A stretch of 40,535 nt of DNA from a virus. A program made the position numbers and the translations under genes. The stretch's first letter is position 1. Each line of letters begins with the position of its first letter. The stretch covers positions 1-40,535 of the IMG/VR virus record IMGVR_UViG_3300036832_000511; one strand, written 5' to 3'. The notes beneath the pieces were generated by a model. The model did no database searches and had not been told where the DNA came from. It saw nothing but the letters and a program-made list of their open reading frames with translations. Shown here in pieces: positions 1,792 to 40,535 of the stretch.

Positions 1792-2094
1792 ATGCTCATT
1801 ACCTCCGACCAGACCGCCGCCCGCGTGGGCGTGAGCCCCGATCATTTCCGGCGCTCCTACCGCGACTGGATCGCCACCCGCGGCTTCCCGCGCCCCGCCA
1901 GCCCGAGCCGCCGGCTCAAGTGGATGAGCGAAGCGGTCGACGCCTGGATGGTCCGACAGAGCCGACCCGAAGGCATGGAGCTGGAGCCGCCCAACGATCC
2001 CGATCCGCCCGCCAGGTCGACAGCCGATCGCCAGCGCCGCGCCATGCGTGAGGTCGAGCGCATCACGCGAGGCCGAAGCTCGTCGCCAGGCTGA
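1792..2094 (+). CDS. AlpA/excisionase-family HTH protein.
   Basis: The N-terminus MLITSDQTAARVGVSPDHF...GFPRP...W...VDAWM matches the AlpA/Xis-type pattern. It sits immediately upstream of the integrase. Confidence 0.65.
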   Translation: MLITSDQTAARVGVSPDHFRRSYRDWIATRGFPRPASPSRRLKWMSEAVDAWMVRQSRPEGMELEPPNDPDPPARSTADRQRRAMREVERITRGRSSSPG

Positions 2095-2132: not shown

Positions 2133-3638
2133 ATGGATGGTAAGGCTGAGTTTGTTTCCAGCGAGGACACCAGCATGCCTGCCAAGACCAGCCGTAAGCC
2201 TGCGAAATCGCAGGCCTTCCAACCCCGCTTCTTCAAGTGGCGCGACGGTCACCCGCGCTGGGAGCCGTCGCCCAAGTTCCGCCAGCTCGGCTGGAAGGGT
2301 TACGACTTCCGCGACCTGACGAGCGGCGCGTGGCTCACCCGCGGCGCGGCCTGCGATCTGGCCGATCAGATCAACGCCGCACTCGACGGCTGGCTGCGTA
2401 AGGAGCCGGTCCCGGAGTGGATGGGGAAACTCGCCCCGCATGGCGCCCATGCCATTACCGCCCCGGCGCCTGAGTCCTTCTCGGCCGGCGCACTCTCGAT
2501 CGGCGCGCTGCTCGACGACTATCTGGACGATCCCAAGCCCTTCAGGGACGTGCTCGCCGACGCCACGCGCCGGCAGTACCGATCCTGCATGAAGGTCCTG
2601 ATCGAGACGGTCGCGGCCGGCATGATGATGACCGTCGCCGAGCTGCGCCGCCAGGATATCGCCGTGCTGCAACTCTCCGACACCCCAGGTGCCCGCTTCC
2701 ATCTGCTCGACGCCTACGACGTCATCCACGCCCGCAGCCCGTCGATGGCGTACTCGACGCTCACCATCGCCACCGGCTGGTTCAACTGGATGCGGCGCAA
2801 GCGCAGCATCCGCGATCCGAACCCCTGCCTCGATATCCCCAAGACCCCGGTGCCCGGCCGCATCGTCACGCTCGACCAGACCGAGATCGACGCCCTGGTC
2901 GAGGTTTTCGAGTGGCTGGGCGTGCCGTCGCTCGGCGACATGGTCGTGCTCGGCGTCGACCTAACCTGGGAGCAGCAGAGCCTGATCAGCCTCACGTGGG
3001 ACCAGCTCGATGACGAGTTCTACGTCGCCGGGGCGCGCGAGAAGACCGGCATCAGCGGCATCCCGCGTCTTTCCAAACGCGCCATCGCCCGCATCGGCGA
3101 GATCCGACAGCGATGGATCGACGCCGGTGGCGCGACCGCAGATCTGCACGACAAGCACGTGTTCCTCTGTGAGCTGCCCTCCCGCCGCCAGCACTGCACC
3201 GAACATGGCTCGCAGACGTGCCTCCCATGCATCGGCCGCCGCTGGAAGGCTGACACCGTTCGCGAGTATTTCGAACTGGCGCGCGAGATCGCCAGCAGCG
3301 CGCCGGGCCTGCCACGCCAGTACGCCCGGCTCGATGACGGCAGTCGCGTCGGCTACCCCGCTATCCTCGACAAGCAGTTCCGAGATCTGCGCGACACCGG
3401 CATCACCCGCTGCGCCGAGGCGCAGATGACCTTCTCCGAGATCGCCACCCGCTCGCGTCACAGCGAGGCGACGATCGCCAAGATCGTCGGTAGCCACTAC
3501 CTCGAAAAGACCCAGCGCATGGCGGACTCGGCGACCGATAAGCTCGACGCCCTCCATGACGGTGAGGGTAGCCACCAGGCGGCCAAGCTCGCAAAGATGC
3601 GTACCCGCGCTGCTAAGTTGCGGCTGGTTAGCGGCTGA
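2133..3638 (+). CDS. int: Tyrosine recombinase / phage integrase (divergent). The likely real start is ATG 2175.
   Basis: The C-terminal box is RDLRDTGITRC...ATRSRHSEATIAKIVGSHYLE (LR..T / RHS / Y pattern). ATG 2175 has a GAGGA Shine-Dalgarno 9 nt upstream, whereas 2133 has none. The gene is adjacent to Xis and to a repeat-rich attP-like region. Confidence 0.75.
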   Translation: MDGKAEFVSSEDTSMPAKTSRKPAKSQAFQPRFFKWRDGHPRWEPSPKFRQLGWKGYDFRDLTSGAWLTRGAACDLADQINAALDGWLRKEPVPEWMGKLAPHGAHAITAPAPESFSAGALSIGALLDDYLDDPKPFRDVLADATRRQYRSCMKVLIETVAAGMMMTVAELRRQDIAVLQLSDTPGARFHLLDAYDVIHARSPSMAYSTLTIATGWFNWMRRKRSIRDPNPCLDIPKTPVPGRIVTLDQTEIDALVEVFEWLGVPSLGDMVVLGVDLTWEQQSLISLTWDQLDDEFYVAGAREKTGISGIPRLSKRAIARIGEIRQRWIDAGGATADLHDKHVFLCELPSRRQHCTEHGSQTCLPCIGRRWKADTVREYFELAREIASSAPGLPRQYARLDDGSRVGYPAILDKQFRDLRDTGITRCAEAQMTFSEIATRSRHSEATIAKIVGSHYLEKTQRMADSATDKLDALHDGEGSHQAAKLAKMRTRAAKLRLVSG

Positions 3639-4410: not shown

Positions 4411-6565
4411 CAGAGTAGACCGGCATGTTGGTGGCGCCGCCGCCGGCCGCCGCGCCTGCGAAGGCCGGCGTCCCCGATGCATCCGTGATGAACGCCCGCG
4501 AGCCGGCGCCCATCGTCACCGGCGACGGCAGCGCCGCGAACGTCCCGGTCTGCGGCTTGATCGGCACGGCCGAGACGAGCTGCGTCGGCCCGAAGGTCAT
4601 CAGCGTGACGCCGCTGTTGTACGCCACTATCCCGTTGGCGTTGATCTTCAGGGCCAGGTTGTTGCCGACGAAGATATCGTATTCGTTGGCGGATCGATTG
4701 TAGGTCAGATAGTCCTGCGCGTCGAAACCGAAGGTCGGGTTGCCCGACTGCATTTGCGCGTAGAACGCGACGTCGCCGAACTCTACTTCTTGGGCGGTCA
4801 GTGTACTGAACTTGGTCAGCCCGCCAAAGGATACGCCGATATCGACGTTCAGGTTGACCAGCACCCCGGTCAGCGAAGAAGTCATCGGCCCCGTAACGAG
4901 GCGATCGGCGAACACCAAGTTGCCGGCGCCAGAAATCGTTAACGTGTCCCAGACGTTGCCGAACAACTGCAGCAGCGAGTTGGCCGGGATATTCAAGGTG
5001 CCCGGGCAATGGATGACGTTCGAGCTGAGCGTCACCTTGGAGAACTGAACGGTCGGGTTGAGGATGAAGTTCTGCGAATAGAACTCATTGCCGTGGATCG
5101 CCCAGTCCGCCGGCTGCGTGGCGGCGTTCAAAGCAAACGCCGGCACGTTGGGGCAGTTGATCGTGCAGTCGGTGATGCACAGCCGGTTGAGGATGGCGCA
5201 GCTACTGTCCGTGTAGAACGCAGCCCCGCTGATGCCTTCCCAGTGACACTGCTCGAACTTGAACTCCAGCGCGTTGCTGTCGGTATGACTGACGCCCACC
5301 CATTCCACGCCGTGCCCTGGCGCGTTCACACCCTGATTGAACTGGCACTGGCTGAAGAACACCCCGTTCGGCCCCGCGCCCGCCGTGCCGCCGCCGGTGA
5401 TCCGCACATAAGCCGTGCAATTCAGGTCCGCGCCGCCGTTCTGGCCGAAGCGGCTTTGGCTAATGAACAGCTCCGGCCAGGTATTCACCGAGAGATGGAG
5501 GTTCGTGATCGCGGCTGTGTAGAGCTTCCGTCCGCACGAATGTATGCCGTAGGGCGGATCGGCCCGCCAGTTAAACCCGATGCCATGATTGCGCGAGCCG
5601 ATCTCATCAAGCGAAACCGCATAGCCGTCCTTCACGAAGACACCGAACGTACCAACCCCCGGTGTCCCGGCCGCCCGATCCACTGTGCATGACTTGAAGA
5701 CGGTGGACTTAAGATTGCCGCCGTCGCCCACCTGCACACAGGTCGCCACCCCCAGGTCGAACACCAGCCGCGTGCCGCCCACCAGATCGGGGAAGAACGC
5801 GTCGCCGATCAGCGCCACGCCAGACGGGATGACGATGCCGGCCGACAGCCGATAGGCCGCCGCCGCCATGCGGATCACGGTGTAGCCAGAGTGCAGCGCC
5901 GCCTGGAACGCCGGGTAACTGTCGAAGGCGAGGTTGCCGCCCTGCGCGCCCCAGTTCTCGACATAGGCTTGCGGCGCCTGCGAGGGCGGGAAGTTGGGCA
6001 GCCCCCAGAACTTTAGCCGGCCGCCGCTGTCGGTGCCCATCAGCATGTTGGGCTCGGCGCCGTAGGGCCACTCGTAGAACGCGCCGTTCTCGTCGACGCC
6101 CCAGAGCGTGCTGGGGATCAGCTCGACCAGCGGCGGGTTGACGCCCGGCGGGACGCGCAGCGTGCGCCCCTGCACGGTGTTCATTTCCTGCACCTGCCGC
6201 TCGACGTTATCCAGCGCATCCTCGCTCGACTTCGGCGAGAAGCCGACCATTTCGCCGAACGTCGAGGGCTGGCTGCGCGGCGTGCGGCGCGCCACCACGA
6301 TCTGCGCTCCCGGCAGCCACGCGCCGCCCGGGTCCAGCATGTACGCCGCCAGCGTCACGAAGCCGCCGTTGGTCAGGGTCGGGTTGTAGGCGGTCAACGT
6401 GTAGTCCGCGCCCTGGCTCAGCAGGCCGCCCCAGGTCACGCCGTCGTAGGTCAGATAGACCGCAACGTCGCTCGGCGCGTTGTAGGGCCAGACGGTGTTG
6501 AAGGGACCGAGCGTCGCGCCGGTCAGCGCATAGACCGACTCGGTGGTGACGGGCGTAACGCTCAC
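4385..6565 (-). CDS. Tailspike / tail fibre with a right-handed beta-helix (pectate-lyase-like) domain.
   Basis: GTG start at 6565. It has a tail-fibre-like N-terminal adaptor, then ENWGAQGGNLAFDSYPAFQAAL...VIPSGVALIG, typical of pectate-lyase-type tailspikes. Its position after the ejection proteins corresponds to T7 gp17. Confidence 0.7.
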   Translation of the reverse strand: MSVTPVTTESVYALTGATLGPFNTVWPYNAPSDVAVYLTYDGVTWGGLLSQGADYTLTAYNPTLTNGGFVTLAAYMLDPGGAWLPGAQIVVARRTPRSQPSTFGEMVGFSPKSSEDALDNVERQVQEMNTVQGRTLRVPPGVNPPLVELIPSTLWGVDENGAFYEWPYGAEPNMLMGTDSGGRLKFWGLPNFPPSQAPQAYVENWGAQGGNLAFDSYPAFQAALHSGYTVIRMAAAAYRLSAGIVIPSGVALIGDAFFPDLVGGTRLVFDLGVATCVQVGDGGNLKSTVFKSCTVDRAAGTPGVGTFGVFVKDGYAVSLDEIGSRNHGIGFNWRADPPYGIHSCGRKLYTAAITNLHLSVNTWPELFISQSRFGQNGGADLNCTAYVRITGGGTAGAGPNGVFFSQCQFNQGVNAPGHGVEWVGVSHTDSNALEFKFEQCHWEGISGAAFYTDSSCAILNRLCITDCTINCPNVPAFALNAATQPADWAIHGNEFYSQNFILNPTVQFSKVTLSSNVIHCPGTLNIPANSLLQLFGNVWDTLTISGAGNLVFADRLVTGPMTSSLTGVLVNLNVDIGVSFGGLTKFSTLTAQEVEFGDVAFYAQMQSGNPTFGFDAQDYLTYNRSANEYDIFVGNNLALKINANGIVAYNSGVTLMTFGPTQLVSAVPIKPQTGTFAALPSPVTMGAGSRAFITDASGTPAFAGAAAGGGATNMPVYSDGAVWRYG

Positions 6566-6569
6566 GGCG

Positions 6570-6722
6570 TCAGCCGCCGTGCAGGGCGCCCAAGGCCCAA
6601 ATGATCGCCGCGACCATGAAGCACGCGCGGGCGATGCGCTCGCCGTAGGGCACCGGCCACGTGGCGAGGAACCACAAGATGAAGCCGACGACGACGGCGA
6701 GCACGAAGAGCAGGTTCATCAT
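6570..6722 (-). CDS. Small two-TM membrane protein (50 aa), not in the supplied ORF track; holin-like candidate.
   Basis: Hand translation gives MMNLLFVLAVVVGFILWFLATWPVPYGERIARACFMVAAIIWALGALHGG. It fills the gap between 6757..9645 and the tailspike. Confidence 0.5.
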   Translation of the reverse strand: MMNLLFVLAVVVGFILWFLATWPVPYGERIARACFMVAAIIWALGALHGG

Positions 6723-6756
6723 CGCCCCAGGATGCGGCCTGGGGCGGGCAGTCGGA

Positions 6757-9645
6757 TCAGGACCCGTAGGGGCCAGGCGTGGTCGGCGCGAACCAGTAGC
6801 GCGCGCTCGCCTTTTCCTCCTGCCGCTGCTGGTAGCGGTCGAGGTAGCCGGGGTTCACAGCCTCCTGCAGGCGCCACAGCATCAGGTAGTCGATGGCGAG
6901 GCGCGTGTACCACGTGTTGATCACCGGCAGGTTCTGCCCGAGCAGCCGCACCAGCTCGCCGGGGAGCTGGCGCTTGCCGGTGTCGGGGTCGATATCGTTG
7001 CCGGTCACCGCGTGTTGGAACGCCTGCAGCACCTGCGCGCCCTGGCCTACGGTCGGCCCCATGAAGCTGTCCGCGCTGAACTCCTTGCCGTTGCGGTCCA
7101 TCTCGCCGAACAGGTAGTCGCCCAGCAGGCCGAGGCCGCCGCCCTGCGCCATCGACGCGCCCCAGATTTTCGTCCAGGCCTCGGCCATGCTCATGCCGGG
7201 GTGCATGTCCATCAGATCCCCCGGCGTCTTCGGCACCTCGCCGCGCGACAGCGCCTTGAGCTGCATCCCGAGGTAACCCATCAGCGTCATCGACAGCATC
7301 AGGTGGACGAGCGGGCCGGCGTTGCCGCGCATCGCCTCGGAGAACGCCGGCACGAAGTGGCGCCCGAACGCGCCGGTGACGAACGATTTGAACTGGAACA
7401 GCGACTGCGCGATCTCGCCCTCGGGCGTGCCCTTGCGCAGCACCGGCCCCGAGAGCCCGAGCACCGAGCCTGGCGCCCGCGCCGCCAGCGTCTGGCGCGG
7501 CCCCGGCTCGTTGAGCGCCAGGCGCATCTGGTCGTGGAAGAAGCTGCCGAGCAGCGCCTTGGTCCGGTAGACGTCGTCCTCCTTTTCGGGCTCAGCCTTC
7601 GCCAGCTCGTCCAGTGGATCGGTGGTGAAGTACTTCTGCCCGTCCTCGCCGGTGAGCGTGCGCGCCTCGCGGATCAGGTCCCACTCCTGCGGGCCCAGCT
7701 CGTATTCGCTGAGCCGCTGGCGCAGCTCGCCGGGCAGCTCCCCCCAGTCGAGGTGGTCGTGGTCAGCCAGGTAGGCTTGCGCCTGGGTGACCATCGTGTG
7801 CTCGACCTGTTCGTTGACGAGGGCGAAGCCGCTCACCCGGTGGGTCTGCACTGCCGCCTGCGCCATCAGCCCCGGCCGCGCATCGTCCGGTGAGTACGCC
7901 ACCATCATGCGGCCCTGCAGGTTGCGCAGGCCCGCGCCCAGCGACTTGGCTTTCAGGCGTGTTTCCGGATCGGCGATGTTGCGCCCGAACGATTCGGCCA
8001 TGCCGCCATAGCCCTGCAGCCACTTCGCCCCCATCCGTGACATGGTCGACGCCATGTAGCTGACGTCCGCCGGCTTGGAGAGGATCACCGAGCCGAGCTT
8101 GGTGATCAGGTTCCAGTTGCGGAGGTTCTTCATCGTCTCGGCGAAGCGCAGGCTCACCGGGATATCCGCCCGCCCCGTCACCACTTCCCACGGCGCGTTG
8201 AACGCCGAGCTTTCCAGCCGCCGCCGCTCCGTCTCGCTCTTCGCCATCGTCAGGAGTTGCTGGCGGGCGTCCTCCTTGCCGCGCTCGATGTTCGGCCCGA
8301 AGTCCTCCATCAGCGCGACGTCATGGCCGGCGCGCATCAGCGTCTTCACGACCCCGCCGAAGAACGGCGTGCGCGAGTACTTCGCGGCGTAGTCCATCTC
8401 GTCGTCGACGCTCGTCCAGTGGAACACCCGCGACTTGCTGATCTTGAGCGCCAGGTTGCCGCCCTGCGGCACGAACTCGCTGTCGGCGCCCGCCCCATGC
8501 ATCTCCTGACGCTGCGCGGTGATGCGCTGGTAGACCCGGTAGAGGAACAGCTCGCGCACGTCGTTGGGGTCGCTGAGCATCCCGATCTGGTGCAGCTCGC
8601 GCGCCTCGGCTCTGGCCGCCGCATCGCGCGCCGCGCCGTCCCACGGCGCCTCGTCCTCTTCCGGCGTCGGGTTGAAGCGGTCGTTGGGTTTCTCGGTCTG
8701 CGCCAGGTCTTCCCAGGCGACGCCGTCGAACGTGTCTGGCCGCAGCCTCTCCTTGCCGCGGTCCTTGCCGAGCAGGTAGTCGCGCCAGGGCGTGAACCCC
8801 AGCCGGTCGGCCTGGCGCTGCGCCTCGCGGATATCGAGGTTGTCGACGCGCTGGCGCCAGTCCTCGTCACTGGTCGCCAGCTCCCGCGCCCCGTCCTTCA
8901 TCCACTTCCAGATCGCCCGCTGGTTCACCCAGTAGCCGCCGCCCACCAAGATCGCGTCGTGCTCCATGCGCCCCGAGTAGCCGGGGTAGCGATCGATCAC
9001 CGCGCCCGCGTCGTTGCGCCGGTCGACCGCGTCGTCGAGCGCCGCCTTGATCGCCCGCGCCGCGTGGCTGATCGCCCGGCCGCGCTCGTCGTCGCCGGGC
9101 CCGCCGGCCTGCGAGGTGTCGCCGTTCAGCCGCGCCACCTCGCGCTTCACCGCGCGCGCAAACCCCGTCTCGGTCCGCAGGCCGACCACGCTGGCGATGC
9201 GATTGAAGAGCCCCGGCATCTGGTCGAGATCCGCCTGCAGCGCGCCCAGCATCTGGTTGCCGTACTCGAGCCCCAGCAGCGAGGTCGACGCCGACGCGCC
9301 GATCGCCCGATGCTCGGTGCCCATTAGGAAGCTCTCCCAGGTCTTCACCACGGACTTGATGCCGTCCTGGCGCGCCGAGATCCTGGCGCGCCGGATCGGG
9401 TCGGTCTTCTCGCGCAGGATCTTCTCCTTCGCCGCCGCCAGCGTCTCCTTCATCTTCTGCCGCGCCAGCCGGTCGGCCGCCATGTCGAATGCCGCGCGCG
9501 CGTCGCCGCCGCCGGCCTGGGCGGCCAGCGTGCGCGCCTCGTTCTTCAGCGGCGTGACGAGGTCCCGCTCGATCTCCTCGTCGCTGTAGGCGTCACCCGT
9601 CGCCATGCGGACGGCGAGCGTGCAGGCGCCGGGGTCTTCGGCCAT
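6757..9645 (-). CDS. Large internal virion / ejection protein (962 aa).
   Basis: Called from size and position between the other internal proteins and the tail fibre. The C-terminal part has hydrophobic segments (LVHLMLSMTLMGYLGMQL). No enzymatic motif was recognised. Confidence 0.5.
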   Translation of the reverse strand: MAEDPGACTLAVRMATGDAYSDEEIERDLVTPLKNEARTLAAQAGGGDARAAFDMAADRLARQKMKETLAAAKEKILREKTDPIRRARISARQDGIKSVVKTWESFLMGTEHRAIGASASTSLLGLEYGNQMLGALQADLDQMPGLFNRIASVVGLRTETGFARAVKREVARLNGDTSQAGGPGDDERGRAISHAARAIKAALDDAVDRRNDAGAVIDRYPGYSGRMEHDAILVGGGYWVNQRAIWKWMKDGARELATSDEDWRQRVDNLDIREAQRQADRLGFTPWRDYLLGKDRGKERLRPDTFDGVAWEDLAQTEKPNDRFNPTPEEDEAPWDGAARDAAARAEARELHQIGMLSDPNDVRELFLYRVYQRITAQRQEMHGAGADSEFVPQGGNLALKISKSRVFHWTSVDDEMDYAAKYSRTPFFGGVVKTLMRAGHDVALMEDFGPNIERGKEDARQQLLTMAKSETERRRLESSAFNAPWEVVTGRADIPVSLRFAETMKNLRNWNLITKLGSVILSKPADVSYMASTMSRMGAKWLQGYGGMAESFGRNIADPETRLKAKSLGAGLRNLQGRMMVAYSPDDARPGLMAQAAVQTHRVSGFALVNEQVEHTMVTQAQAYLADHDHLDWGELPGELRQRLSEYELGPQEWDLIREARTLTGEDGQKYFTTDPLDELAKAEPEKEDDVYRTKALLGSFFHDQMRLALNEPGPRQTLAARAPGSVLGLSGPVLRKGTPEGEIAQSLFQFKSFVTGAFGRHFVPAFSEAMRGNAGPLVHLMLSMTLMGYLGMQLKALSRGEVPKTPGDLMDMHPGMSMAEAWTKIWGASMAQGGGLGLLGDYLFGEMDRNGKEFSADSFMGPTVGQGAQVLQAFQHAVTGNDIDPDTGKRQLPGELVRLLGQNLPVINTWYTRLAIDYLMLWRLQEAVNPGYLDRYQQRQEEKASARYWFAPTTPGPYGS

Positions 9646-21262: not shown

Positions 21263-21745
21263 TCAGTTGTTGCGCCCCATGATCTGCCAGGCCAGCGACT
21301 GACCGTTCGCCGCGCCGGCACCGGCGATGGTGCCGATCAGCTCGATGCGCCCGCCAGGATCGCTGGCGTAGCCCAGATGCTGCCACAGCGGCTGGCCGAT
21401 CCAGGGCGGCGTCCACAGCACTTCGAAGTCCTGGGTGCCCACCGCGGCGACGTTCAGGGCGTTCGCCAGCGCGTTCGGGTGGGCGGCGTCACCGATGCTC
21501 AGCGTCACCCCGGCGCCCAGCGCGGTCCACCACAGATAGCTGTTGCCGTGGTCGATGTAGGCGGCCGATTTCAGCAGCCCGAACGAGATCGTGTCGCCGA
21601 TAGCGCCGCCCTGGAAGGTCACGTAGTCGCGGACCACCACGTGATCGCTGCCGTCCACGAAGCGGTTGGAGACGGCGCCGAAGCCGGTCGCCGCGAGGTT
21701 CTGCAGCGGCTGGCCGACGAGGCTCCCGTAAAACTTGGTCGCCAT
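21263..21745 (-). CDS. Paralog B of a tandem pair of about 160-aa virion-module proteins (candidate decoration or minor capsid protein).
   Basis: Aligns along its full length with 21756..22232 (shared SLVG.P.QNL, DGSD..VRD, GAGVTL.IGDAAH, ASDPGG.IEL, AWQI.GRN). Confidence 0.5.
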   Translation of the reverse strand: MATKFYGSLVGQPLQNLAATGFGAVSNRFVDGSDHVVVRDYVTFQGGAIGDTISFGLLKSAAYIDHGNSYLWWTALGAGVTLSIGDAAHPNALANALNVAAVGTQDFEVLWTPPWIGQPLWQHLGYASDPGGRIELIGTIAGAGAANGQSLAWQIMGRNN

Positions 21746-21755
21746 GATGGGCTCC

Positions 21756-22232
21756 TCAGATATTCCGCCCGACGATCTGCCAGGCGAAGTTCATGCCGTT
21801 GGTCGGCGCGGCGCCGCCAATCGTCGCCAGCAGCTCGATGGTCCCGCCAGGGTCGCTCGCCCAATTCAGCCGCTGCCACAGCGGAAAGCCCATCTGGACC
21901 GCTTTCGCCTTCGCAAGCGGCAATTGCCCCTGCGCCGCGAGGCTCATCGCGCTGTTCAAAGCTGACGCATGGGCGGCATCGCCAATGTTGAGAGTCACGC
22001 CAGCCCCCACTGCGTCGAAGAATACGTTGCTCCCCGCATAGTCGAGGTAGGCGGTCGACTTGAACACACCCAGCGAGATCACGTCCCCGATGACGTTGTT
22101 GTTGAACTGCACGACGTCGCGGACCAAAATTTGATCGCTGCCGTCCTTGAATAGATTGGGGACCAACCCGTAGCCGCTCGCCTGCAGGTTCTGCACCGGC
22201 GCGCCGACCAGCGAGCCAATGAGCTTTGCCAT
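21756..22232 (-). CDS. Paralog A of the tandem pair, immediately downstream of the major capsid gene.
   Basis: See the paralog alignment above. It starts 38 nt after the capsid stop. Confidence 0.5.
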   Translation of the reverse strand: MAKLIGSLVGAPVQNLQASGYGLVPNLFKDGSDQILVRDVVQFNNNVIGDVISLGVFKSTAYLDYAGSNVFFDAVGAGVTLNIGDAAHASALNSAMSLAAQGQLPLAKAKAVQMGFPLWQRLNWASDPGGTIELLATIGGAAPTNGMNFAWQIVGRNI

Positions 22233-23468: not shown

Positions 23469-23702
23469 TCAAGCGGGTTCGATGGGCCCGGCGAGGCCCA
23501 GCTTGTACTTCACCGCGACGAGGTCGGGGTGGTGACCGAACAGCTTCTCGGCCATCGCCACCACCAGCGCCGCGCCGTAAGGGTTGTCACCGCCGGCCAG
23601 GAAGCCCGCCGTGTAGGCGACCGCGCCCATCATCCACAGCGGCTCGTCGATGTTGGCCGCAACCTCGCTCCAGGCGCGCGTCAGGTCACGTTGCTTCACC
23701 AC
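23469..23702 (-). CDS. Hypothetical protein (77 aa).
   Basis: GTG starts at 23702 or 23699, preceded by AAGGAG. The Shine-Dalgarno lies just after the stop (23728) of the second ParB reading frame. Confidence 0.55.
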   Translation of the reverse strand: MVKQRDLTRAWSEVAANIDEPLWMMGAVAYTAGFLAGGDNPYGAALVVAMAEKLFGHHPDLVAVKYKLGLAGPIEPA

Positions 23703-23727
23703 AGCTCCTTCGTTCCTGATTCGCCCC

Positions 23728-24598
23728 CTAACCGTTCCGTTGAAAGTCCTGTGGACGGACTAATCCGCTGGGGCCCGCCTCGGCCTCGCGCTCGGCCTGC
23801 ATCGCCTTCAGCCGCGCGAACGCCGCCTCGCGGTCGCCGACTATATCGGGCACGTCGGACCACAGCCGCCCTTCGAATCCCTCGATCATCACCGTGGCGT
23901 TGTTCACCATCCCCGGCAGATAGATGCTGCCCAGCTTCTCCTCGCGGGCGAACGCGGTCCAGCAGCGCGCCACCACCGCGAACCCCGTCTCGCCGCCCAT
24001 GAAGTGTGCGCCCCACCTCGCCGTTCCAGCGCAGGCTTTCGTTCGCCAGCGCCATCACCGCCGCGGTCTGGGTGACCGGGATTAGGCTGGTCTTGTGCGA
24101 CCGGCTCGCCACCTGAGTGACCGCCTGCTCGAATCGTAGGTGGTTCGCCACGAGCTGCACCAGCATCGCCCGCGGCGGCTGGTAGCGCAGGCTGACCCCC
24201 GCGCAGTAGTTCCACACCACCCGCGCGCTGGCCGCCAGCACGTTGTTGTGCTTGTGCCCCTGGATCGAGAGCACGTCGGCAAGCGTGCGCGCCCGCCCCG
24301 AGTCCATCGTCGCGAAGGCTTCCTGGGCGACGCCGCGCACCACCAGCATCGCCACCGCGACGTTCGCCAGGATCACCGCCGAGAGCCGGTGGCGCCCGTC
24401 GATCAGCTTGCCCTCGGCGTTGAAGATGATCGGCTGGCCGTTGGTCATCCAGCGGCCCGCCAGCATGTCCTCGGCGTGCCGATCGACCTGACGCAGGCTG
24501 ACATTGCGGTTCGCCGCCGCGTCCTGCAGCCACGCCCGCGCCTCGCCCGGCCCGATCAGCTCGACGTCGGCCTGCAGGGAGGGATGATGCCCGCTCAT
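23728..24598 (-). pseudogene. ParB/Srx-fold (DGQHR-type) protein split by a frameshift near the G4 run at 24011-24014.
   Basis: The N-terminus NRNVSLRQVDRHAEDMLAGRWMTNGQPIIFNAEGKLIDGRHRLSAV is a ParB-like nuclease-domain pattern. Downstream of about 24010 the 300-aa frame becomes RG-rich with poor GC3. The frame of ORF 23728..24000 keeps high GC3 and is open from 24054. Confidence 0.6.
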
Positions 24599-24927
24599 TG
24601 CACGCCCGCCCGCCGGCGCCGGCCCGGCACCACGCCCAGGTCATAGCCGATCACCCGAAGTGCAGATTGCATCTTGCCGAGTTGCGGGTGCGCCACCTTG
24701 CGCTCGGCCCAGTTCTCCAGGGTCTTCGGATGCGGGCCGAAGCGGTCGTAGATTTGCCCGAACGAGACACCCGACGAGCGGATCAGGCCCATCACCTCGT
24801 CGCGCAAGTCCTCGTAGCTTTCGAGCTGCGCTCTCTCTCGTTCGAACTCGCTCTTTTCACTCTGTCGCCGTCTCGACAGCTTGTCGATGCTGGCGATCAC
24901 TTCCTGAGCCGTCTTGATCTCTGCCAT
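24595..24927 (-). CDS. Xre-like HTH protein with an N-terminal coiled coil (110 aa).
   Basis: Internal start MAEIKTAQEV with a GAGAGGA Shine-Dalgarno. The C-terminus GVSFGQIYDRFGPHPKTLENWAERKVAHPQLGKMQSALRVIGYDL fits the HTH_3 pattern. It has an ATGA-type overlap with the ParB-like gene. Confidence 0.6.
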   Translation of the reverse strand: MAEIKTAQEVIASIDKLSRRRQSEKSEFERERAQLESYEDLRDEVMGLIRSSGVSFGQIYDRFGPHPKTLENWAERKVAHPQLGKMQSALRVIGYDLGVVPGRRRRAGVQ

Positions 24928-24984
24928 GCCAATCCTCTCGCCTGCGACGCCCGCGCAGGTATTCCAAGACTCGCTCCCCACGTC

Positions 24985-25016
24985 GATTAAGACGCCTCCC
25001 GCCTCTGTTGACAACA
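24985..25016 (-). promoter_or_regulatory. Candidate internal promoter with a palindromic operator upstream of the HTH gene.
   Basis: On the minus strand: TTGTCA (25014-25009), an 18-nt spacer, then TTAATC (24990-24985). The perfect palindrome TGTTG-A-CAACA at 25006-25016 overlaps the -35. It sits in a 138-bp gap inside an otherwise tightly coupled operon. Confidence 0.35.
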
Positions 25017-25065
25017 CTCAGCGCCTCAACCGCCCCGAGACTGTTGTAGAGCCGCTCGTAGAGCA

Positions 25066-25743
25066 TCACGTCGGCGCCTCGTTTGGCAGCAGCGCCACCG
25101 CCCGCAGCGTCGCGCGGGCCAAGTCCTCGATCGCGCCGTCGCCCTCCAGCTCGGCGATCTCGCGCAGCTTCGGCAGGCCGCTCTCGATCGCCTCCACGCA
25201 CTCGGCCAGCGTCGCTGCCCGGCCGTGCGCCCACCACTCGACGTGCTCGGGCGCGCCGAGCTGGAACAGGATGCCGCCGTTGCCGAGCGGCATGTCCGAG
25301 ACGTCGACCGCGCGGCTGTGGTGCAGGCTCGCCCAGAACGCGGTGACGCCGGGGTTGCGCTCGATCCTCAAGCCGGGCGCGAATCGCTCCTCGGGTAGAT
25401 CCTTTTCGTTGCGCCGCATGCGCGGGTTCGACAGGAACGGGCACGCCTGCACCGCATAGCGCGCACACTGCGGGTGCGACGGCGGCTCGGCCGACACCCG
25501 GTTGATCGCGCACATGGGCCCGATCAGCGACACCTTCAGCCGCCCCGGCTTGCCGCCGCAGACCCAGCAGCGATGTTGGTTGACCGCCGCGCGCAGCTTG
25601 CGCCAGTCGATCACCCGGAAGTCGGGCACGCCGCCCCGCCACTCGACGAACCACGGCACCGGGAAGCCGCGCACGTCGATCGGCAGCGCCTGCATCGAGG
25701 TCGGCAGCGGGATCGCGCGGATAGCCGCCGCCAGCTCGGTCAC
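25066..25743 (-). CDS. Cys-rich putative zinc-binding protein (225 aa) of unknown function.
   Basis: GTG start with a GTGA overlap. Motifs are PVPWFVEW..PDFRVID, CWVCGG, EPPSHPQCARYAVQACPFL (C..C ... H..C ... C.P). Confidence 0.5.
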   Translation of the reverse strand: MTELAAAIRAIPLPTSMQALPIDVRGFPVPWFVEWRGGVPDFRVIDWRKLRAAVNQHRCWVCGGKPGRLKVSLIGPMCAINRVSAEPPSHPQCARYAVQACPFLSNPRMRRNEKDLPEERFAPGLRIERNPGVTAFWASLHHSRAVDVSDMPLGNGGILFQLGAPEHVEWWAHGRAATLAECVEAIESGLPKLREIAELEGDGAIEDLARATLRAVALLPNEAPT

Positions 25744-25922
25744 GGCGTCGACGTCCGGATCATCGACTGGAGGAAGCTGCGCCTCTCTCCCTGCTCCAGA
25801 AGCAACCCGTCAGCCACGGTTTCGAGGATTTCGGCCGCCTCGTCGTCGCCGCCGCTCAGTCTGAGCTGCCGCGCCACCTTGCGCAGCGTCAGGATGGTGG
25901 CGATCGGGTCAGCGTCTCTCAC
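25740..25922 (-). CDS. Hypothetical protein (60 aa).
   Basis: GTG 25922 forms a GTGA overlap with the stop of 25919..26206, and its own stop overlaps the next start. GC3 is high. It is the C-terminal part of track ORF 25740..26123. Confidence 0.45.
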   Translation of the reverse strand: MRDADPIATILTLRKVARQLRLSGGDDEAAEILETVADGLLLEQGERRSFLQSMIRTSTP

Positions 25923-26206
25923 TGCACCCGCCTCTTGCCGGGCATGGCGTCGATCTCGTCGGCCGCCTCGCGCAGCGCCGCCGCCACCCAGTCCAGCTCG
26001 ACGGCGTAGGCCGTTGGCGTCTCGAATTGCGCCGCCAGCGCGCGCGCCTCGACCGGCGTCATGTGCATCGCCATCATGCCGTAGGTCAGGCCCACCCGCA
26101 GGCCGAACCCCTCCACGATGCACTTGCCGACCAGCAGCGTGTCGCCCGCGGGATCAGGCGACCACGGGATCACCCCGCTGATCCGCTCGGGCCCGCGCGG
26201 CTTCAT
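25919..26206 (-). CDS. Hypothetical protein (95 aa).
   Basis: Internal start MKPRGPERIS of ORF 25919..26809, forming an ATGA overlap with the scaffold stop. GC3 is high. Confidence 0.5.
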   Translation of the reverse strand: MKPRGPERISGVIPWSPDPAGDTLLVGKCIVEGFGLRVGLTYGMMAMHMTPVEARALAAQFETPTAYAVELDWVAAALREAADEIDAMPGKRRVQ

Positions 26207-27120: not shown

Positions 27121-27415
27121 CGGGCAACTCCTGTGTAAGCACCGCAGCCGCCGCCAGGGCGGCTTCGTCGTAGCCCGCCTCGTTGGCGAGCCGGATGGCC
27201 GAATCCATCATGCCGGCCGAGTACCGTAGCTGCGCGTCGGAGGCGTCGTTCCCCATCGGCCGCCCGACGCCGCAGGCCCACAGGTGATGCAGCAGCACGA
27301 ACTTGCCCAGATCCGAGGCGAACACCGCCCGGTAGGCGTGCTGCACCGCCTGCTCGTCCCCGGCGCGGAGCTGCGCGGTGAGGGCTGGCGCGTCGATGGC
27401 GGGGACGTCGGTCAC
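27050..27415 (-). CDS. Hypothetical protein (121 aa).
   Basis: GTGA overlap with the upstream gene. Its 3' end overlaps the scaffold start by 71 nt in another frame. Confidence 0.45.
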   Translation of the reverse strand: MTDVPAIDAPALTAQLRAGDEQAVQHAYRAVFASDLGKFVLLHHLWACGVGRPMGNDASDAQLRYSAGMMDSAIRLANEAGYDEAALAAAAVLTQELPDERHAPSGFGTVLDDGDLDGVDA

Positions 27416-27726
27416 TGCCGACCACCGTGCGTCACGACGTGCTTCAGCTTGAACTTATCGATGAACTCGTTCAGCTCGGCCGACATCAGATCCATGCGCC
27501 GCATGTCCGCCTCGGTCGCCTCCTCGCCCTCGTCGAACATCGCCATCATGCTGCCGAACACGTGCTGCGCGCCCGCGAAGAAGGCGTTCCGCATCTCCTC
27601 CAACTGCAGCGCCGAGGCGTTCTCGGGAATCGCCATCAGCCGCAGGCTCACCCACCCCGACTCGACCAGCTTGCCCTCGTCGGCCAGCTCCCGCGTCAGC
27701 CGCTCCAGATAGGCCCGATCAACCAT
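27412..27726 (-). CDS. Hypothetical acidic protein (104 aa).
   Basis: A complete ORF, coupled to both flanking genes. Confidence 0.5.
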   Translation of the reverse strand: MVDRAYLERLTRELADEGKLVESGWVSLRLMAIPENASALQLEEMRNAFFAGAQHVFGSMMAMFDEGEEATEADMRRMDLMSAELNEFIDKFKLKHVVTHGGRQ

Positions 27727-39392: not shown

Positions 39393-40477
39393 CACGCCGC
39401 TCCCTTCAGCCAGTCGTTGAAGTCGTTGCCGACCTCGCTGCGGGCGACGTCGAGCTGCCGGCCGCGCGCCTGCCGGCGCCAGTGCGCCAGGGTCCGGTCG
39501 AACGCGGCGCGCGCCACCTCGCCCCAGTCGTTGTCCTGCAGCAGGATCACGTGGTCGGCGCAGTCAGGCCAGGCGAGCTTCGCCATGTGGTCGACCGAGC
39601 CGGCCGCCCAGGTGCGCCAGGCCGGCATCGCGGCGGCGACCGAGAGCGTCGTCTCGATGCCCTCGCCGATCGCCAGCGGGCCCGCCACGCCCTTGCGCGC
39701 CGCCTCCGGGGCCGAGAGGCCGCTGGGCCCGCGCGTCAGCCGGATCGCGCCGCCGATGGTCGGGCCTAGCATCTTCTTCGGCCGGTGGACGTCCGCCTTG
39801 CCCAGCCCGTCTGGCCGCAGCCAGGTGCGGTGGACGCCGCTCACCCCGACGTCGTCGCGCGTCATCGCCGCGACCATCGCCGGCCAGTAGGTGATCTCGC
39901 CCGTCTCGTCGTCCTTGTGCTGCAGCCGCTCGCAGTAGCGCAGGGCGGCGAGCCGGTACTTCGGCGCGCCGATGCGCTCCAGCGGGATCGAGCGCGCCTC
40001 GCGCAGGTAGACGTCGGCGAGCGTGCCGGTGATCGGCGCCAGCCCACGCCACCACGTGAAGAGCCGGTGCGAGTAGCTGCGCCGCTGCGCCTCTTCCCTC
40101 GATCGACGCTGCCGGCGCTCAGCCTCGGCGCGCTCGCGCTCGATGCGCTGCTCGGCCGCCGAGCGCACCGGCAGATCGGCCCACCCGAGCCAGTTCACCG
40201 ACCACTTCAGCGCGTCGATGAACTCGTTGAGCCGCAGCACGTAGCGGATGAGTTCGAAGACGTCGCCGCCGTCGCCGGTCTGGAAGTCGTGGAAGCCGCC
40301 GGCCTTGTCGCCCGCCACCCAGATCGCGAACGCGCCCTTGGCCCCGGGCGAGCGCGGGTTCTGGGTGTTCACCACGCTGCCGCGCACCCGCACCGCGAAG
40401 CCCAGCGCGTCCAGCAGATCGGTGACCCGGAGCTGCAGCTCGCGGCGCACCCGATCCTTGTCGGGGAGTTGGCTCAT
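39392..40477 (-). CDS. Toprim-domain DNA primase with a Cys-less zinc-ribbon-like N-terminal domain.
   Basis: The Toprim glutamate box is LAIGEGIETTLSVAA and the DxD box is ILLQDNDWGE. The N-terminus NPRSPGAKGAFAIWV..GGFHDFQTGDGGDVFELI resembles the primase zinc-binding domain but lacks the cysteines. Its start overlaps the stop of the 66..698 gene across the circular junction. Confidence 0.65.
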   Translation of the reverse strand: MSQLPDKDRVRRELQLRVTDLLDALGFAVRVRGSVVNTQNPRSPGAKGAFAIWVAGDKAGGFHDFQTGDGGDVFELIRYVLRLNEFIDALKWSVNWLGWADLPVRSAAEQRIERERAEAERRQRRSREEAQRRSYSHRLFTWWRGLAPITGTLADVYLREARSIPLERIGAPKYRLAALRYCERLQHKDDETGEITYWPAMVAAMTRDDVGVSGVHRTWLRPDGLGKADVHRPKKMLGPTIGGAIRLTRGPSGLSAPEAARKGVAGPLAIGEGIETTLSVAAAMPAWRTWAAGSVDHMAKLAWPDCADHVILLQDNDWGEVARAAFDRTLAHWRRQARGRQLDVARSEVGNDFNDWLKGAA

Positions 40478-40535
40478 GCCGCCGCCTCCACGTTCCGCGT
40501 CGAGGTTCGCGCGATCGACAGCAACAGGTCGCGGA
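40409..40535. repeat. Terminal overlap copy 2, identical to 1-127.
   Basis: Exact 127-nt match to the start of the window. Confidence 0.95.

Follow-up and report, generated by a model that had tools for sequence, protein, structure and literature searches.

The 40,535-nucleotide viral sequence IMGVR_UViG_3300036832_000511 (positions 1 to 40,535 of that IMG/VR record, called the window below) carries a group of minus-strand genes at positions 23469-26206, between a putative scaffold gene and the major capsid protein (MCP) gene. We hold with moderate confidence that this group is a mosaic accessory (moron-type) island, built from independently mobile units that occupy a hypervariable slot in the head gene operon of a complete temperate podophage. 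A first-pass annotation, made from the sequence alone, had called the interval a six-gene non-structural insert and a candidate for an undescribed accessory system; comparison with related phages upholds its accessory character and does not support the idea of a single six-gene system. The novelty lies in the unannotated protein families that the island carries, especially the 225-amino-acid (aa) protein C225 with its unmatched fold, and in a conserved pair of genes for a helix-turn-helix (HTH) protein and a ParB-like protein, rather than in the island itself.

Gene content of the island

All of the open reading frames (ORFs) that had been listed for the interval were found on the minus strand where they had been placed. 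The features of the interval and of its borders are as follows; GC3 is the G+C content at third codon positions, dN/dS is the ratio of nonsynonymous to synonymous substitution rates, and L numbers designate the loci that were compared, L005 being the closest relative of the window.

27120-26203, minus strand: 305-aa putative scaffold, the upstream border of the slot; matches phrog_3742, a family of unknown function, at 7e-27
26206-25919, minus strand: A95, 95 aa, lineage-specific; GC3 0.95, dN/dS 0.25 vs L005
25922-25740, minus strand: B60, 60 aa, an ORFan; GC3 0.85
25743-25066, minus strand: C225, 225 aa, member of an unannotated Cys5-His family
25065-24928, minus strand: non-coding gap of 138 nucleotides (nt), upstream of D110
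24927-24595, minus strand: D110, 110 aa, Xre/Cro-like HTH protein; dN/dS 0.11 vs L005
24598-~24020, minus strand: N-terminal part of the ParB-like protein, ~193 codons; matches phrog_5931 at 5.7e-45, GC3 0.94
24598-23696, minus strand: the 300-aa ORF as annotated (database protein P0121), a frameshift chimera
24000-23728, minus strand: E2_90, C-terminal ParB-like fragment, 90 aa, in the +1 frame with its own ATG; GC3 0.87
23702-23469, minus strand: F77, 77 aa, with a strong AAGGAG Shine-Dalgarno sequence ahead of its start
23420-23279, minus strand: structured capsid leader, ~145 nt, between the F77 stop and the MCP ATG, the downstream border of the slot
23278-22271, minus strand: MCP, downstream of the slot; matches PF19821 at 2.9e-31 and phrog_3437

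The GC3 values of the listed ORFs lie between 0.80 and 0.95 (the last part of the 300-aa ORF excepted), compared with a genome G+C content of 0.69, and each ORF can therefore be taken as coding. In place of the six genes described earlier we count seven coding segments, with one gene disrupted (below). All segments, both ParB pieces included, have dN/dS values of 0.11-0.55 when the window is compared with L005, which indicates purifying selection on the island. Stop and start codons overlap at four junctions: the A95 ATG overlaps the scaffold stop (ATGA), B60 is joined by GTGA to both A95 and C225, and the D110 stop overlaps the start of the ParB-like gene (ATGA).

The smaller genes have narrow distributions. 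A95 has its sole homologue in L005, at 92% identity, and no homologue of B60 is present in any locus examined, L005 included. F77 precedes the MCP gene in L001, L005 and L006/L007, follows a ParB-like gene in the unrelated contig L087, and is absent from L233. Scans of all island proteins against Pfam, PHROGs, NCBIfam and PADLOC found nothing beyond phrog_5931 and weak ParB PHROG matches; the single PADLOC match (D110, E=0.006) was judged spurious. The earlier statement that the combination matches no characterized system thus agrees with our scans, in which the island proteins had neither a curated family nor a defense model.

The slot is hypervariable and its genes are dispensable for assembly

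Six related lineages, the window among them, carry differing gene sets in the slot. The other five are arranged as follows.

L005: like the window, minus B60 and minus the 138-nt gap
L001: 68-aa ORF, 148-aa ORF, F77, 164-aa ORF
L006/L007: D110, 125-aa ORF, F77, 169-aa ORF
L182: D110, then an intact 321-aa ParB-like gene
L233/L231: portal, g104, g121, scaffold, one unrelated ~98-aa ORF, leader, MCP; without C225, D110, ParB and F77

The L233/L231 lineage has the same portal, scaffold and tail genes as the window, and its MCP is 85-95% identical. Since it lacks all of the island genes, and since the content of the slot is otherwise lineage-specific, these genes are accessory and are dispensable for morphogenesis. 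Their presence at the slot in all relatives, which would speak against an accessory role, was looked for, and L233/L231 is empty of them. C225 has moved within the head module: its place in L001, L006 and L182 is between the portal gene and g104, upstream of the scaffold. L005 has suffered a further deletion, in which the C225 C-terminus, the gap and 9 codons from the start of D110 were lost.

The variable accessory region also reaches past positions 23469-26206, since g104 (27412..27726, minus strand, GC3 0.91), a small accessory gene between the portal and scaffold genes, recurs near C225. Its homologues are found no more than a few kb from C225 in L001 and L006/L007, which are relatives of the window, in five viral contigs that are unrelated in other respects (L009, L010, L046, L051 and L069), and in L184, a locus of a Caulobacteraceae metagenome-assembled genome. 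No family match to g104 was found in NCBIfam and other family scans.

Morons and hypervariable slots are known from the structural operons of other phages, among them lom and bor of lambda and the variable regions of HK97-like and T7-like phages. The window island resembles them in that its content varies among close relatives, is dispensable for assembly and is common to unrelated phages, and in its temperate background. The genes are thus patchy among close relatives and have homologues in unrelated elements, which is how morons and other accessory genes are recognized. Unlike typical morons, however, the island has no demonstrated promoter-terminator pair, its upstream part is coupled to scaffold translation, and its cargo normally consists of early regulatory and DNA-metabolism genes rather than lysogenic-conversion surface proteins. 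The premise that the scaffold gene directly precedes the capsid gene in T7-like modules proved too strict, as phage HTVC010P and Ralstonia phage RpY1 carry 1-2 small ORFs there.

We suggest that the units of this island, of which there are at least two, were captured into the head operon from the niche that they otherwise share, early accessory operons in temperate phages of soil Alphaproteobacteria. The first unit would be A95-B60-C225. Its stop/start overlaps with the scaffold gene imply that it is expressed alongside the late genes, presumably by read-through and translational coupling from the scaffold. The second would be D110 with the ParB/Srx-fold protein, sometimes followed by F77. D110 could be a sequence-specific, autoregulating DNA-binding partner that regulates or targets the protein encoded downstream, and an intact ParB-like protein might be an NTP-dependent, DNA-associated switch acting on transcription or other DNA transactions of phage or host DNA; the window copy would at best work in a truncated, two-piece form. 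These biochemical steps are offered with low confidence, and the activities and biological target of all the island proteins are our suggestions. The arrangement indicates that a head operon can take up early-operon genes at a recombination-prone slot, and the conserved sequences on either side of this slot are now defined.

C225 is a widespread Cys5-His protein with an unmatched fold

A search with C225 gave at least 2770 database matches, none of them named and none with a Pfam domain, and relatives are encoded in 517 IMG/VR loci. Cultured phages contribute only four distant matches, all in Rhizobium phages and in uninformative contexts. Prophage copies, about 39-59% identical to the window protein, are found in Alpha- and Betaproteobacteria, Actinobacteria, Acidobacteria, Planctomycetes, Verrucomicrobia, Gemmatimonadetes, Chlorobiota/Ignavibacteriae and Armatimonadetes. 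The protein had been described as a Cys-rich putative zinc protein. It has only 6 Cys, but five Cys and one His (C59, C62, C78, H90, C93 and C101) do not vary in the family; E86, P87 and an N-P-G motif are also invariant. A confident AlphaFold2 (AF2) model of C225 has a predicted local distance difference test score (pLDDT) of 86 and a predicted template modeling score (pTM) of 0.83. Foldseek comparison of this model with the PDB and BFVD gave nothing at E<=0.001 (best E ~1, template modeling (TM) scores <=0.2), and the sole match of the C225 profile among PDB sequences, a helical one to histone H2B, is spurious.

The C225 gene of temperate phages and prophages is found in early operons, where it follows YqaJ/ERF or DUF3799/RecT recombination genes or adjoins those for a DUF87 ATPase and a methylase. 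Directly upstream of C225 in 12 loci is the gene for a ~95-aa protein that resembles the RNA polymerase alpha C-terminal domain and contains a helix-hairpin-helix (PF03118, 32 bits); in prophages this gene overlaps C225. Directly downstream, 20 loci encode an AlpA-like HTH protein. Both neighbors are hints of a transcription-related role for C225. Loci with the PF03118-like/C225/AlpA-like arrangement include L003, L027, L028, L032, L045, L047, L185-L187, L190, L193, L224 and others. An HTH protein of the D110 type is encoded near C225 in ~24 of 124 loci.

Because the neighbors of C225 in other phages are exonuclease/annealase genes and genes for small DNA-binding proteins, we infer that this Cys5-His protein may bind metal and act on nucleic acid or on the machinery of transcription or recombination. 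Two more specific candidates were rejected. A TET/JBP-type dioxygenase paired with ParB would require a double-stranded beta-helix (DSBH) fold, and neither that fold, an HxD motif nor a structural match was found; an HNH or NinG-type nuclease likewise found no family or fold match. It is a speculative idea, which we think rather improbable, that C225 represents a new fold and a new enzymatic or regulatory class directed at a universal host target (RNA polymerase or DNA), and that in soil alphaproteobacterial phages it cooperates with a D110-type HTH protein and a divergent ParB-like NTPase as an unrecognized host-takeover or counter-defense system.

D110 and the ParB-like protein form a conserved gene pair

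D110 belongs to a family with 105 cluster representatives. The N-terminus of its members is helical and charged, and toward the C-terminus they have a pattern of the Xre/Cro HTH type, compatible with a five-helix Xre domain. An AGGAT Shine-Dalgarno sequence is conserved ahead of the D110 ATG; a start that would extend the protein to 140 aa was rejected, as this conserved sequence and the starts of homologues favor the ATG at 24927. Against the PDB, the D110 profile gave sub-threshold matches to 2kpj (E=0.017), the prophage Lp1 Xre protein, HigA and 2ofy, and Pfam gave sub-threshold matches to HTH_31 in 6 of 46 family members (best E 0.0076) and to HTH_3 and HTH_37 in one member each. The earlier assignment of D110 as an Xre-like HTH protein thus stands weakly: the matches are below threshold, but all point toward Xre/Cro-type domains. 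An initial alignment of D110 relatives proved too diverse to be used for scanning loci.

In the window and in L005, L085, L087, L165, L170, L171 and L182, D110 stands directly upstream of the ParB-like gene, and in most cases the two overlap. This pairing of D110 with the ParB/Srx-fold protein is thus conserved in at least 8 contigs, and F77 comes next in some of them. In L087/L177 (IMGVR_UViG_3300047160_025601) the D110 and ParB-like genes are split across frames at sites that differ from those in the window; this contig possibly contains assembly indels and is used as supporting evidence only.

The phrog_5931 match of the window protein covers profile positions 9-191 of 282, and this ParB-like family has at least 548 IMG/VR loci and 351 database matches, none of them annotated. 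The ParB/Srx fold that the first-pass annotation had proposed is supported by structure. We used for the fold search the intact homologue P0123, which is 60% identical to the window copy and has an AF2 model with a pLDDT of 91. The first 10 rows of its Foldseek comparison with the PDB are all ParB/Srx-type chains, among them Myxococcus xanthus ParB, pNOB8 ParB-N, Bacillus subtilis ParB, Noc, PadC and SbnI (best E 4.4e-3, probability 1.0), and the alignments, of ~230 columns, span the N-terminal and helical domains. The sole signal to ParB at the level of sequence comes from weak ParB-like PHROG matches (E ~0.01). Invariant or nearly invariant in the family are R31, N53-G54, D67-G68-(Q/R)-H70-R71, T97, D99, G101, R104 and D108, which by their positions may be the equivalents of ParB boxes I-III. 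No parA gene was found beside the ParB-like gene, and its neighbors D110 and F77 have no P-loop family match. The surroundings of distant members are replication and recombination genes, among them those for DnaB, a PD-(D/E)XK exonuclease and another ParB-like protein, of canonical type.

Among known ParB proteins, KorB pairs with an HTH partner, KorA. Orphan members of the ParB-CTPase fold, which has been surveyed (PMC12704722), include HerB/YfjB, a ParB-like protein of a mobile element (PMC13370423), and the ParB proteins that activate the thymine dioxygenases (5mYOX enzymes) of phages (PMC13229309). Such proteins behave in the way suggested above for an intact ParB-like protein. The family described here shares with such proteins a ParB/Srx-type N-terminal fold followed by a helical domain, location on a mobile element without ParA, and a small partner gene; its DG(Q/R)HR motif lies at the position of ParB box II (GERR). 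It differs in having no dioxygenase nearby and a different C-terminal domain, and in the window the protein is split. The family probably falls outside the Pfam-based survey (PMC12704722), as it lacks a PF02195 match.

Two other members of the wider group bear comparison. Like DndB/DGQHR proteins (PF14072), which belong to the ParB/Srx superfamily, many members of the family have a DGQHR motif; unlike the DndB case, there are no dnd genes, and the window copy reads DGRHR. PF14072 matched 1 of 31 members only, below threshold (E=0.0045), and NCBIfam gave no match. As with IbrA/IbrB, a prophage-type ParB-like protein is encoded beside a partner gene, but the partner with a PAPS (3'-phosphoadenosine 5'-phosphosulfate)-reductase fold is absent, and C225, D110 and F77 have no Pfam match.

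The ParB-like gene of the window is disrupted

The ParB-like ORF had been taken as one gene. The 300-aa ORF is instead a frameshift chimera with an internal deletion. Its last ~108 codons (24019-23696) have a GC3 of 0.51 and are non-coding in that frame, and the coding signal switches to the 90-aa ORF at 24000-23728 (GC3 0.87), the product of which (E2_90) aligns to the C-terminus of the intact homologues P0123-P0126. Intact homologues (P0123-P0126, L031, L079 and L182) are 300-321 aa long and have both parts in one frame. With the intact L165/P0123 gene as reference, a 2-nt deletion just before the E2_90 ATG is common to the window and L005. The window alone is also missing 105 nt (35 codons), which encode a conserved G-E-G-L-x-K-G-D-x-R-L-x-L-R linker that includes the invariant G206 and R219 and is the most conserved part of the family. 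A programmed frameshift was rejected, as mutation is the simpler explanation of a 2-nt deletion relative to intact homologues together with a 105-nt deletion. Both ParB pieces have a dN/dS of ~0.35 between the window and L005. The two pieces may perhaps be made as separate polypeptides, but the canonical protein is not made. Being a chimera, the 300-aa ParB ORF is unfit as a representative of its family.

Independent units or one system

The presence of C225, the HTH protein and the ParB-like protein in one interval raised the question of whether they co-occur elsewhere, and a neighborhood survey gave an answer in two parts: they do co-occur in other backbones, but C225 mostly occurs without both of the others. 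All three are present in the window, L005 and L182. A ParB-like gene lies next to C225 in L020, L031 and L079/L179, and D110 lies 0.3-3 kb from C225 in L006, L008, L011/L178, L018, L041, L052, L059 and L175; there are about ten close cases of D110 near C225 and further divergent ones.

These associations are the basis for the idea that C225, D110 and the ParB-like protein form one phage system acting on DNA (in counter-defense, modification or host takeover), in which D110 would provide site specificity, the ParB-like protein NTP-driven loading and C225 a metallo-effector. In favor of it, the three families recur jointly or pairwise in different backbones, 7 of 9 D110-centered loci have a ParB-like gene or C225 nearby, and none of the three is annotated, their genes belonging to early accessory operons in temperate phages. 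We nevertheless consider it unlikely. C225 is found without ParB and without a confident D110 in 40 of 41 bacterial-genome loci, from many phyla, and without both partners in roughly 80% of viral loci, and only 3 of 80 ParB-centered loci have D110 or C225. The order and spacing of the three genes vary, and most of the contigs with co-occurrence are from soil samples that are related, so that shared ancestry inflates the association. Moreover, the ParB-like gene is broken in the window, while C225 and D110 are still under purifying selection. Since C225 is mostly alone, a single six-gene system is unsupported, and the lineage-specific A95, the ORFan B60 and the broken ParB-like gene fit such a system no better.

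About equally improbable, in our estimation, is that D110 and the ParB-like protein are a toxin-antitoxin (TA)-like or superinfection-exclusion module, with the HTH protein as antitoxin and autorepressor and the ParB-fold NTPase as a toxin that has been inactivated here. The pair resembles type II TA systems with Xre antitoxins (HigA-type) in that a small HTH gene comes first and overlaps a larger downstream gene, here by 4 nt, and in that a perfect CAAGCG-N-CGCTTG palindrome stands in a separate non-coding region ahead of the pair in several loci (L170, L171 and L085). Weak matches link the D110 profile to the HigA antitoxin and to Xre proteins of prophages, both the window and L005 have a broken copy of the larger gene, and ToxB, a ParB-fold ATPase toxin (bioRxiv 10.64898/2026.05.05.722872), provides a precedent. 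On the other hand, no known toxin family is present, and PADLOC and TA families gave no match. The ParB-like model aligns over the ParB N-terminal and DNA-binding domains (~230 columns), whereas ToxB is without DNA binding; both ParB fragments retain a dN/dS of ~0.35; and members of this HTH family are also encoded ahead of C225, which speaks for a general regulator role.

It is also possible, though less probable still, that the island is decaying, non-functional cargo left by recombination. The frameshift and 105-nt deletion in the ParB-like gene, the further deletion in L005 (C225 C-terminus, gap and first 9 codons of D110) and the ORFan status of B60 would all be expected of such remnants. 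However, strong coding GC3 is kept, dN/dS between the window and L005 is below 1 for all segments, the C225 and D110 families are highly conserved, and the stop/start overlaps are kept. Lastly, the view that these are lineage-specific morphogenesis or virion proteins (assembly chaperones, decoration or ejected proteins) could appeal to their place inside the late operon, to translational coupling with the scaffold gene, to C225 between portal and capsid in 5 of 6 related lineages and to F77 before the capsid gene in four, but it is largely refuted and very improbable, given that L233/L231 lacks all of them and that C225, D110 and ParB-like genes elsewhere lie in early recombination and regulatory operons of unrelated temperate phages and prophages.

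Several observations weigh against the mosaic island interpretation or against assignments on which it draws. Curated families match none of the island proteins, and the scaffold role of the 305-aa protein is assigned by its place between portal and capsid. All of the HTH matches of D110 lie below family thresholds. For the ParB fold, the Foldseek TM-scores of P0123 are modest (0.3-0.45), PF02195 is matched neither by the window ParB-like protein nor by 31 family members, and ParB-family profiles found nothing among PDB sequences. The frameshift was seen in two assemblies, possibly of one study, where a common systematic assembly artifact is unlikely. Finally, the three-way co-occurrence recurs, and a functional link beyond independent modules is conceivable. 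Three sizeable unannotated families (C225, with at least 2770 clusters, the ParB/Srx-fold family and its Xre-like partner) are targets for work on phage-host conflict.

The gap upstream of D110

The 138-nt gap had been put forward as a site for an internal promoter and operator. Such a site is not conserved, since in L005 the gap is deleted and the D110 start there overlaps the C225 stop. The palindromes of the gap are short and imperfect (5-bp arms, or 9 nt at 89%), and a sigma-70 consensus scan, which does not cover alphaproteobacterial promoters, found no promoter or terminator on the minus strand of the island. A candidate operator for D110-type HTH proteins is the perfect CAAGCG-N-CGCTTG palindrome, which lies in the ~170-nt non-coding region before the D110-ParB pair in L170, L171 and L085, an arrangement that fits an autoregulated bicistronic unit. 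The palindrome is at ~4880-4900 in L170, ~3900-3920 in L171 and ~2880-2900 in L085, contigs that are unrelated to the window phage. As the phage encodes an integrase, expression of the island genes in lysogens is possible.

The phage genome and its late operon

The window is a whole contig of the Joint Genome Institute (JGI), and its ends overlap exactly over 127 nt (1-127 and 40409-40535); the genome is thus circularly closed and complete at 40,408 bp. Its G+C content is 69%. The late genes are almost all on the minus strand, in T7-type order, which is confirmed by the portal, terminase and tail tube genes. The following features lie outside the slot.

1792-2094, plus strand: excisionase-like gene
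2133-3638, plus strand: integrase; matches phrog_1 at 4.8e-13
29789-27963, minus strand: portal
31783-30263, minus strand: large terminase

The integrase and the excisionase-like gene mark this podophage of T7 architecture as temperate. The 305-aa protein at the scaffold position is 66-90% conserved in the relatives. The closest cultured capsids, at 24-30% identity, are those of HTVC010P-type pelagiphages and of Ralstonia phages; at the nucleotide level the region matched no cultured phage, and the window contains no Rfam family or tRNA.

The leader RNA that precedes the MCP gene is nearly invariant in five lineages, the structural proteins of which are only ~80-85% identical. A five-helix model proposes 41 pairs, with 97.6% of cells paired. 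Compensatory changes are found at 5 of the pairs, compared with 0-1 in slid controls, and one pair occurs as G-C, C-G and U-A; the fold energy has a z-score of -2.4. Rfam gave no match, a covariance-model search of 91 sources recovered only the five training copies, and an exact-pattern scan found the same contigs only. T7-like phages are known to have structured 5' leaders and RNase III processing hairpins ahead of their capsid gene, and the leader resembles these in being a conserved, stable, multi-hairpin element directly upstream of the capsid start codon. It differs from them in having no sequence or Rfam relation to them, and in that no phage RNA polymerase was identified in this phage. 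We regard it as a candidate regulatory or stabilizing leader RNA and as a candidate new RNA motif.

Downstream of the MCP gene lie two paralogous ~160-aa genes, followed by the tail tube A and B genes and those for internal and tail proteins. The number of these ~160-aa paralogues just past the MCP gene is two in the window (21263-22232) and three in L001 (10203-11649); L233 has two (6370-9009), ~1.7 kb apart. This stretch looks like another variable spot in the late operon.

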